Origin: Octopus vulgaris
Lineage: Eukaryota
NCBI GenBank assembly: GCA_951406725.2
Contig: OX597816.1
Coordinates: 112,158,001-112,222,000 of the forward strand
Length of the DNA stretch: 64,000 nucleotides
Direction of reading: 5' to 3'
Part shown: one piece after another, positions 11,234 through 17,987 of the stretch
Numbering within the stretch: the first letter of the stretch is position 1
Layout: each line of letters begins with the position of its first letter
Program-made: the position numbers and the translations under genes
The notes under the pieces: model-generated
Databases searched by the model: none
Told to the model about the DNA's origin: nothing
The model's input: the letters and a program-made list of their open reading frames with translations, nothing else

Positions 11234-11520
11234 CAGTGCCAACAAAGTCTTTAGACAATTTCAAAAAGTCATTTTAGAAAACTTAGAATAGGTGGCAACT
11301 AAATTTTTGTTGCATATTAATATGTTATCATTAAAGTTTGTTTTTAATGATATTAATAGCTTTATTAATGTTATGTCTTTATGCTTCAGACATCAATTAA
11401 TGTTGTTTTTATGTTTCAGACAACAGCTACTCCACATGAAATGTACAATGTGCCTTGGTTTATCGAAACAAAGCCGGATGTTCAAACACAAAGAAATTAT
11501 ACCATCTGTCATTTCAACTT
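11234..11520 (+). mobile_element. 5' fragment of a Tc1/mariner element (DUF4817-like HTH start)
   Basis: Starts CAGTG; peptide ATPHEMYNVPWFIETKPDVQTQRNY resembles the N-termini of such transposases. Confidence 0.5.
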
Positions 11521-11589
11521 GCCCCAACTAAGTCTATCTGTACTACTTCCACTCAAGTGCAACTACTAACATCAAAAATTCATAAAGTG

Positions 11590-13807
11590 TTCCTTTTTAA
11601 AAAGCTGAGGCTTTATGCAAATAAAATTCAGAAGGCACTTAAAAACTTATCCTCCTTTCTTCAAATACACGGAAAGAGCCTCTCTAAAAATGAAATCGAC
11701 TATTTATTCAATTTTAAATACAGACCTAGTCTTTTCTATGGATTATCTAAAATACACAAAAATCTACATATTTATAAAGCTTGCAAAGTTTCTCCGAGCC
11801 TATGCATTAATATTCCTTCCCTTACTGACCTTAAACTGAGACCCATCATTGCTGGCCCTGCTTGTAAAACCCATCATTTGAGCAACTTCCTCAACATCTT
11901 ACTCAAACCATTTCTAAAATATGTGAAAAGCTTCATCAGGGATGACTTAGACATGCTTAACTACCTCCTGATGACAATTAATGAACGAACTGTTAGTATC
12001 ATTCGATGTGGTGAATTTGTACACCAATATCCCACACAATTATGGTATAGAACCTTCTGGCTAGAAAAATACCCAGAAGAGATCCCAGGACACATCAACC
12101 ACAGATTCATAATTGCAGCACTCAAATTCATCCTACTAAACAACTATTTCACGTGCGATACAGTTTACTATTGACAAAAATGTGGAATTGCAATGGGAAC
12201 CCGAGTTGCTCCAGTGATTGTGAACCTTGGAATGGGTTACCTAAGACTTAAAATATACCAATCATCACTACAAAAATATGGCACCTCATTTCATTGCTAT
12301 TTAAAGGAGAACTGGAAGAGGTATTTGGACGATTGCTTTATACGTTGGAAAGACAGCATGGACAAACTCCTCGATTTCAAAATAATGCTTAACAATATTG
12401 ATAGCAACGTATAATTCACCATGGAGCACAGCAGTAAACAACTCCCTTTTCTTGACATTCTAATTAAAATAGTCAATAACCACATCTAAACAGACATCTT
12501 CTATAAACCCACAGATTCTAAACAATACCTATTATTCAACTCATGCCACCCCAAACACATAAAAATTTATATACCTTATAATCTAGCAAAAAGAATCTGT
12601 ACCATAGTTTTGGACACCTATACTCATGAACAAAGACTCCTCAAAGTCAGATCAATACTAATCAAAAGACATTACCCAATATCATTAATAAATGATGGCA
12701 TTAAATGAGCTAAGAAAATAGATATACGAAAATTAACAGATGTCAACCAAAATACTACACCAGACTTAAAAATACTTCCATACATCTCCACACATAACCC
12801 TAGAAACAATGATGCCTTCAACATTATCCTCCAAAATCTACCCATCTCACAGGAGATAAAACAATGAACAACATTTTAGTCTCACACAAAATTATCAAAA
12901 GCAAAATGCAACCTAAATCATTGAAAAATTTATTAACCAGCACAAGACTATATCTATTAACAATGGAACCAAAAGTGAAAAAATGTGGTCAACTTACTGT
13001 GGTACATGCCCTCACCTTTTGGAGGGTTCAGAATTCCACTTTAGACAAGGTGAAATATTTAAGATTAAATCAAATTTCACCTGTGCTTCGGAAAATCTAA
13101 TCTATGCCATTACATGCCTAGGGTGTGGTAATCATTATATTGGCCAAAGAGAAACTTCACTCTGTCGAAGAACCACTCTCCACAAAGAACAAATCCGCCA
13201 CCCACAAAACAGACAGATTCAGGTCAGTGAACACATAGAAAGATGCGCTAGGAACCTTAACCCTAATTTCCTAATTTTCCCCTTCTATCAGTCCTCACAG
13301 AACACCTCAGTACAACAAAGAATGAATAAAGAGGCAACTTTCATCAATAAATATCTTCCGCAACTCAATATAAACACATAACTTAATACAGAAGACTACT
13401 AATCTTTCAATTAATACCACCCATACATCCCATACACCATTCACAGTACAGATCTATATCTACTCTAATTGCACCAAATCCAGAACTACTTACCTCCCTT
13501 ACACATAATCTTTTTACTCAGGGACTAATAGACCTGACACCGTTCATTAATCGGTGTGCATTCAAAGCAGTGATCGGTAATTTTACGAAACCGGTATGCT
13601 TTTGAATCTCTTTAACAATTCACAATAATGACTGTTATTACTTTTATTCCTACCTCAGTTCATCTAATTGTATATATCTATCGTTACTTTTCATAAAAAG
13701 CCTTTACTGATTTTGATTTCCAATGTGCATTTTCGCTTATTTTTCTTCTTACTTTCCCCTTACATTTCCACGTGTAGTTTCTATTTCTTTTTGTAACACA
13801 TTTCTAT

Positions 13808-17543: not shown

Positions 17544-17987
17544 CAGTGCCGGTGGCACACAAGAAAATCATCCGAACGTGGCCGTAGCCAGTACCGCATA
17601 GACTGGCCTCCGTGCTTTGGGGACGTAACAAACACCATCCGATCGTGGCCGTCCGCCAGCCTCATCTGGCACCTGTGTCGGTGGCACATAAAAACAACAT
17701 CCGAGCGTGGCCGTCTGCCAGCCTCGTCTGGCACCTGTGTCGGTGGCACATAAAAACACCATCCGAGCGTGGCCGTTCGCCAGCCTCGTCTGGCACCTGT
17801 GTCGGTGGCACATAAAATCACCCACTACACTCTCGGAGTGGTTGGCGTTAGGAAGGGCATCCAGCTGTAGAAACACTGCCAGATCTGACTGGCCTGGTGC
17901 AGCCTTCGGGCTCCCCAGACCCCAGTTGAACCGTCCAACCCATGCTAGCATGGAAAACGGACGCTAAATGATGATGATGATGATGAT
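17544..17987 (+). mobile_element. V-domain SINE-like element with internal 62-bp tandem array
   Basis: Units start at 17633, 17695 and 17757; GGTTGGCGTTAGGAAGGGCATCCAGCTGTAGAAAC; tail CATGCTAGCATGGAAAACGGACGCTAAA(TGA)n. Confidence 0.8.

Follow-up and report, generated by a model that had tools for sequence, protein, structure and literature searches.

A short hammerhead motif lies in the genome of Octopus vulgaris, on the forward strand at positions 13560-13607 of a 64,000-nucleotide stretch (assembly GCA_951406725.2, contig OX597816.1, 112,158,001 to 112,222,000). We refer to the whole stretch as the window. The motif has a type I layout, with the core G3 U4 G5 A6 U7 C8 G9, and belongs to a decayed Penelope-like element (PLE), in whose 3' repeat it lies. 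Our preferred interpretation, to which we assign a probability of about 0.68, is that this is a decayed member of a hammerhead lineage with a purine at position 3 and a pyrimidine at position 8. The source ribozyme would have cleaved weakly, probably as a dimer formed via helix III, and the window copy is probably inactive. The evidence consists of the inheritance of the core pair, the pattern of change in the fold and fusions of U6 to the predicted scissile bond.

The 3:8 core pair across the genome

The source genome comprises 2.8 Gb in 227 contigs and is rich in microsatellites. We searched it with a pattern spanning the core, in which positions 3, 8 and 9 were left open. This produced 276 matches, compared with 0 and 1 for reversed controls. 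Among the 28 matches with G3, position 8 was C in 21, U in four and A or G in three. U8 without G3 occurred in 235 matches; the first 100 listed were A3:U8 except for three U3.U8. The 13 matches with neither G3 nor U8 were A3.G8 (4), A3.C8 (4), A3.A8 (3), U3.C8 (1) and C3.A8 (1). Four pattern matches (L031, L041, L047 and L065) were rejected as not being family copies. Counting family copies only, C8 accompanied G3 in 21 of 25. In addition, a search with a 261-nt region gave 1631 candidates, of which 40 were scored (93-100% identity).

A further sample, blind to the core, was selected solely by the sequence downstream (3') of the cleavage site. It comprised the first 100 of 232 matches; a six-copy tandem cluster was counted once, leaving 95 rows. 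There were 84 readable cores: 63 were A3:U8, 12 were G3:C8 and nine were other combinations. All 12 G3 copies had C8. Most family copies carry a second non-standard pair, A3:U8. Judging by its distribution, G3:C8 is an inherited character of subfamilies, copied many times, and not a product of decay.

The counts bear on a trivial explanation, that G3 and C8 arose by chance as a single dead CUGAnGA copy decayed. The element is indeed decayed, with a decay change at position 9. However, the 21 loci with G3:C8 are spread over many contigs, older subfamilies carry the pair too, and C3:G8 was found in 0 of the 276 pattern matches. These results refute chance decay, to which we give practically no credence. 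The published alternative, U3:A8, was likewise found in 0 of 276. Hence, the family lacks the C3:G8 (or U3:A8) core pair of described PLE hammerheads. The first-pass annotation had proposed G3:C8 as a natural variant, with a CUGAnGA family consensus as the outcome that would speak against it. The variant, which may have been favoured or merely tolerated, is natural and inherited, and the consensus is not CUGAnGA. G3:C8 is not fixed, most copies being A3:U8, and the double transversion described in that annotation did not occur in the window copy.

The history of the pair was reconstructed from the endonuclease encoded upstream. A search returned 150 scored relatives with 70-100% identity. We examined the top 30 and 40 hand-picked lower relatives; the core could be read in 59 of the 70, which entered a tree with labels assigned by hand. 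The cores were A3:U8 (47), G3:C8 (8), A3.A8 (2) and A3.C8 (2). Separately, a canonical-core pattern gave 26 matches (controls 10), and two of 25 fetched matches sit behind a related endonuclease. The outgroup, L160, has a CUGAUGA core (C3:G8) and an endonuclease that is 52-56% identical. All four Watson-Crick pairs therefore occur at 3:8 among the PLE-linked hammerheads of this one genome, since U3:A8 is found in the additional families described below.

The endonuclease tree is a ladder. Its steps are L146 (G3 C7 C8), L135 (G3 A7 C8), a G3 U7 C8 grade that includes the window copy, and a single clade containing every A3 copy (approximate likelihood-ratio test 90.5). Mean terminal branches are 0.107, 0.086 and 0.044 in the G3 groups and 0.037 and 0.024 in the A3:U8 groups. 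Outside the hammerhead, G3:C8 copies diverge from the column majority by 5.5%, versus 4.0% for A3:U8 copies. Both measures point the same way as the rooted ladder. Relatives of L146, representing older subfamilies at 25 loci, had G3:C8 in 15 of 17 readable cores; the other two were C3.C8. On these comparisons the oldest subfamilies are G3:C8 and the younger ones A3:U8. We infer that C3:G8 was replaced by G3:C8 through two transversions, deep in the lineage. Two transitions then appear to have turned G3:C8 into A3:U8. Either a wobble intermediate or decay could explain the four G3.U8 copies.

The window copy and its host element

The features of the element are as follows, in window positions.

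11440..13798 (+): PLE, decayed and 5'-truncated; 5' limit approximate, many copies end at 13796-13800
11440..12708 (+): presumed reverse-transcriptase (RT) region, split into several frames
12917..13381 (+): C-terminal GIY-YIG endonuclease frame (PF01541, E 0.0075, 17 bits)
13537..13557 (+): hairpin of six pairs just 5' of the hammerhead, kept across subfamilies
13546..13563 (+): preferred 5' end of copies, terminal-repeat start, uncleaved RNA; 15 of 95 5' ends versus 3.7 expected
13560..13569 (+): stem I 5' strand, pairs with 13597-13607, one bulged U
13570..13576 (+): core positions 3-9 (G3 = 13570, C8 = 13575, G9 = 13576)
13577..13586 (+): stem II, three pairs (13577-79 with 13584-86) and a 4-nt loop; G10.1-C11.1 kept
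13587..13596 (+): G12 A13 A14 (13587-89), palindromic helix III ACCGGU (13590-13595) and A17 (13596)
between 13596 and 13597 (+): predicted scissile bond; at locus L358, U6 joins the base that corresponds to 13597
13597..13607 (+): stem I 3' strand, which would head the predicted 5'-OH product

The core, GUGAUCG, and the helices read as the first-pass annotation described. The motif is genuine, a type I hammerhead of the minimal kind. It is not a chance match, because the reversed controls returned next to nothing and because the same architecture covaries in sister subfamilies. It sits 180 nt 3' of the GIY-YIG frame, within the terminal repeat, as is usual for PLE hammerheads. The match of that frame to PF01541 is weak, at 17 bits against a curated cut-off of 22.6; GIY-YIG-like and C-C-H-H residues are recognisable. 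We take 11440-12708 to encode RT on the basis of sequence motifs; three fragments of the region matched 0 Pfam families. A (TA)n run follows the 3' end at 13798. Insertion into (TA)n microsatellites is seen in the flanks of copies and, like the C-terminal GIY-YIG endonuclease, is a trait of Neptune-type PLEs. The CX2-5CxxC linker that precedes the endonuclease in such PLEs, as defined in PMC8557442, has its cysteines split between two frames in the decayed window copy. The six-pair hairpin at 13537-13557 adjoins the preferred 5' end of copies.

No Rfam hammerhead family matched anywhere in the window at E <= 1, as predicted for a variant that standard descriptors would miss. Rfam matches in the window were microsatellite-driven microRNA hits only, all of which we attribute to chance. 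Searching the whole genome with RF00163 gave six loci, all elsewhere than this hammerhead. Three related loci (L073, L074 and L077) are canonical-core hammerheads above the Rfam cut-off, with an insertion of ~70 nt in stem II.

The window copy departs from its family at position 9, where the family keeps A. The exact G3 C8 G9 string has one match in the genome, and G9 is also sporadic among A3:U8 copies. By this distribution A9G is decay, as had been suspected. In the window copy the hammerhead fold has a predicted energy of -6.4 kcal/mol versus -12.6 kcal/mol for the lowest-energy misfold, and a shuffle z of only -1.69. The misfold is favoured because G9 allows pairing between the core and helix III. 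In a sibling with A9 (L002), hammerhead fold and misfold are equal in energy. The folding model thus indicates that the window copy is probably inactive, owing to A9G.

Constraint on the fold and traces of cleavage

Constraint was assessed in 44 of the 59 copies. These were chosen by hand, and copies with deletions or heavy decay were left out. Pairs were counted by structure-guided parsing, which mis-parsed two of the 44 rows; a MAFFT alignment misaligned helix III. Conservation was near complete at U4 (44), G5 (43), A6 (43), A9 (42), U16.1 (44) and G10.1 (43). Position 17 was A, U or C in 43 copies and G in only one. The family has the U4 G5 A6, A9, G12 A13 A14, A15.1-U16.1 and H17 expected of a hammerhead. 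Elsewhere, N7 takes three states and loop II also changed along the ladder. In stem I, pair I.1 is A-U in 21 copies and G-C in 19, and pair I.3 is G-C in 24 and A-U in 14; both sides switch in each case. Helix III varies in length and stays palindromic (ACCGGU in 10 copies, ACCAUGGU in 13 and ACCAAUUGGU in seven), so that palindromes of 6, 8 and 10 nt cover 30 of 44 copies. Stem II is short and variable. Stems I and III thus covary around a constant core. Though few events on one ladder, the helix changes form the pattern that a retained dimeric hammerhead would be expected to leave. In the oldest subfamily (L146, L362-L369), stem II lacks G10.1-C11.1 and has the palindrome CUAUAG, which could pair between two molecules.

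These data also bear on drift. Conceivably, the core drifts without constraint and the 3:8 pairs hitch-hiked in a single master-element lineage. Independent events on the ladder are few, some mismatched 3/8 states were apparently passed on repeatedly, and PMC8557442 suggests that hammerheads may simply ride on PLEs. However, changes at both 3 and 8 restored pairing. Furthermore, the changes at N7, in loop II, in stem I and in the length of helix III contrast with unchanged U4, G5, A6, A9 and U16.1. Unconstrained drift of the core is unlikely, and we allow it a slim chance.

Fusions of U6 to the predicted scissile bond point to cleavage. There are 224 matches to the U6 3' end in the genome, of which 100 were listed. 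Fifty fetched loci and L194 were compared with the lineage by BLAST, and the rest were judged by eye to be flanks of short interspersed nuclear elements (SINEs). L194/L195 is the only join to the lineage among the matches listed. Here, a full-length U6 (Rfam 97 bits, model 1-105) is joined via five T to position 0 of a young A3:U8 subfamily. The join is present in both arms of an inverted insertion, and TT microhomology is possible. A targeted search identified L358, where full-length U6 is fused at the equivalent of 13597, without microhomology, to a window-type 3' end. The first list of U6 matches also holds four loci (L302, L314, L315 and L328) at which U6 is joined to a second PLE-like family, again without microhomology. 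Intact copies of that family (L330-L353) show that the junction falls exactly at the GUA site of a U3:A8 hammerhead. Finally, at L388 a 3' fragment of U6 is fused at the predicted cleavage site of a third PLE-like family, likewise U3:A8 (L391-L408). In total, U6 lies at a hammerhead scissile bond at seven loci in three families, five without microhomology. Only the first U6 list is unbiased, because the two other searches were aimed at the site. Candidates L360 and L361 were rejected since U6 is fused to other sequences, and L354, L357 and L359 have no U6.

Hammerhead cleavage yields a 5'-OH end. RtcB joins the cyclic-phosphate end of U6 (U6>p) to 5'-OH RNA (PMC6789731). Consistent with this, the U6 fusions are likely to be a footprint of cleavage in vivo. 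They resemble the U6/LINE-1 chimeric retrocopies of Moldovan 2019 (PMC6789731), in which U6 with about five T is followed by the 3' part of a retroelement and retrotransposed. Unlike those chimeras, the junctions described here fall at the hammerhead scissile bond, in three PLE families. U6 fusion at a hammerhead site was not found in the literature searched.

Copy 5' ends provide a second, fainter record. Starts at the predicted scissile bond were found in five of 232 copies versus 1.6 expected (Poisson P 0.026). This is not decisive, because TA microhomology is present in four of the five, and an equal number of ends was counted at a TA site 11 nt upstream (3 of 95 for either site). In 29 rows of a young A3:U8 subfamily, insertions end at -2 to 0 in seven cases, at +1 in four and at +2 to +5 in eight; the remaining rows are fold-backs, deletions, a duplication or intact copies. 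The excess at the scissile site is at most mild. L200 and L209 were excluded as cleavage-site starts, being fold-backs through stem I, and L197 was set aside as an internal deletion. The insertions L191/L192 and L210/L211 are perfect fold-backs centred 1-2 bases past the predicted cleavage site. Three RNA runs of a related organism contained 65-75 reads each, none at least 95% alike, which is too little to judge expression or cleavage; no reads covered the hammerhead of the young copy chosen.

These end positions weigh against a cleaving source, as do several other observations. Uncleaved starts at 13546-13563 dominate. Since most copies with a 5' end near the motif start upstream of it, uncut RNA was the main template. 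No U6 fusion points specifically to a G3:C8 source: L358 has no diagnostic sites, and its source may be G3:C8 or A3:U8. When families with G3:C8 alone were targeted, none of the three matches was relevant (L387 has an unrelated flank, L388 belongs to a U3:A8 family and L389 is chance). On a ladder, covariation counts as one or two events and not as hundreds. A single distant outgroup, with a branch of 0.59, fixes the root, and a tree of the terminal repeat, which we discarded, was poorly resolved and did not recover G3:C8 as one clade. Mismatched cores exist, namely C3.C8 in two of 17 older copies and the four G3.U8. A3.C8 is shared by the young copies L122 and L145, whose terminal repeats are similar, possibly from a source with an unpaired core. 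A full mutational scan reported low activity for other 3:8 pairs, which would include A3:U8 (PMC9901934). Lastly, the youngest subfamilies have four bases (GUAA 6, GAAA 4, GCAA 2, AUAA 2) where GAA is expected, and the fourth base may displace G12. Along the ladder (L108-L145), the bases between stem II and helix III shift from NGAA to GNAA (CGAA, GGAA, GUAA, GAAA, GCAA); either a base was inserted beside G12 or G12 was lost.

Such observations would fit a fold kept for another job, with little or no cleavage. It might bind an element protein, mark the transcript 5' end or pause RT, with ends near the site coming from stalling in stem I and microhomology. Most copies begin upstream of the hammerhead, uncut; ends are scattered from 0 to +5 within the stem I 3' strand; and the G12 region is altered in the youngest subfamilies. 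In vitro, PLE insertion was independent of cleavage, uncut RNA of a lizard PLE served as template, and no RNA reads ending at the cleavage site were found (PMC11167929). PMC4209133 describes evidence of in vivo cleavage as absent for minimal PLE hammerheads. A fold that does not cut, however, does not account for U6 junctions on the predicted scissile bond in three families, mostly without microhomology. Nor does it account for position 17, which varies between A, U and C and is almost never G, as catalysis requires. We regard a non-cutting fold as a minor but real prospect.

We therefore favour a weakly cleaving source ribozyme and suggest the following mechanism. By analogy, two motifs in tandem repeats would pair through palindromic helix III as a dimer. 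With G12 as the base and the 2'-OH of position 8 as the acid, roles described in PMC8495972, any Watson-Crick pair might be possible at 3:8, at some cost in rate. Selection would have kept such a pair. Cleavage would be partial and, by analogy with published PLE hammerheads (PMC11167929), may need the PLE's own protein. A minority of transcripts would be cut to the 5'-OH product, which could sometimes be joined to U6 and then retrotransposed, most copies being made from uncut RNA. The U6 join may occur by RtcB ligation or by a template jump; a jump from the RNA 5' end would mark the same position as ligation.

Relation to described hammerheads

The closest known systems are the minimal type I PLE hammerheads of Cervera and De la Pena 2014 (PMC4209133). 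Shared traits are a terminal repeat behind the endonuclease, a short stem I, G10.1-C11.1, a palindromic helix III suited to dimers and many single truncated copies. Those hammerheads have C3:G8 or U3:A8 as their core pair, where the present lineage has G3:C8 or A3:U8. Stem II also differs in being short, with 2-3 pairs, and the window copy has no extra base between 9 and 10.1. Natural U3:A8 variants are described by Perreault 2011 (PMC3088659) and in Schistosoma Cercyon elements (PMC4209133). They too represent natural covariation at the 3:8 tertiary pair. However, they keep pyrimidine3:purine8, whereas the PLE lineage described here inverts the polarity and then swaps to A3:U8.

Engineered hammerheads with C3G/G8C have the same G3:C8 pair and are partly active (PMC11167929, PMC9901934, PMC8495972, PMC3884650). 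In a PLE hammerhead the double change partly rescues cleavage (PMC11167929); in the full scan it was the sole rescuing double change (PMC9901934). Natural A3:U8 is the more surprising state, because that scan found only the G:C swap to rescue. These are laboratory double mutants; here, the pair is carried by retrotransposing subfamilies. A natural G3:C8 or A3:U8 core was not found in the literature searched, which covers hammerhead variants in part. All four 3:8 pairs can reportedly be active in vitro, a result attributed to Przybilski and Hammann in 2007. Work on PLE hammerhead variants by Lunse in 2017 may already contain such cores.

One survey filter required C3 and G8, or allowed only U3:A8 (PMC3088659). 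Because filters demand these bases, families such as the G3:C8/A3:U8 lineage are invisible to surveys, and PLE lineages recorded as hammerhead-free may carry the motif after all. The ladder offers natural test sequences for a change of tertiary pair near the general acid. U6 fusions at a scissile bond are a genome-only test, applicable to any assembled animal genome. We propose only tentatively, at somewhat below even odds, that these are the first natural working hammerheads with an inverted core (G3:C8, then A3:U8), with U6 fusions as a general record of cleavage in vivo.

Some minor observations were made alongside. At L319 (G000:C4:31799000-31800300), an inverted insertion with two arms, resembling those of the PLEs, joins U6 to an AT-rich repeat. 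At L361, a full-length U6 is directly followed by a full 5S rRNA copy (Rfam). Many U6 3' ends (L279-L308) run into the 5' ends of a few SINE-like repeats, and L286-L292 form a tandem U6 array with a spacing of about 1.1-1.4 kb. Within the window, positions 17630-17822 contain a GC-rich tandem repeat of 62 nt (3.1 copies, 93% alike).
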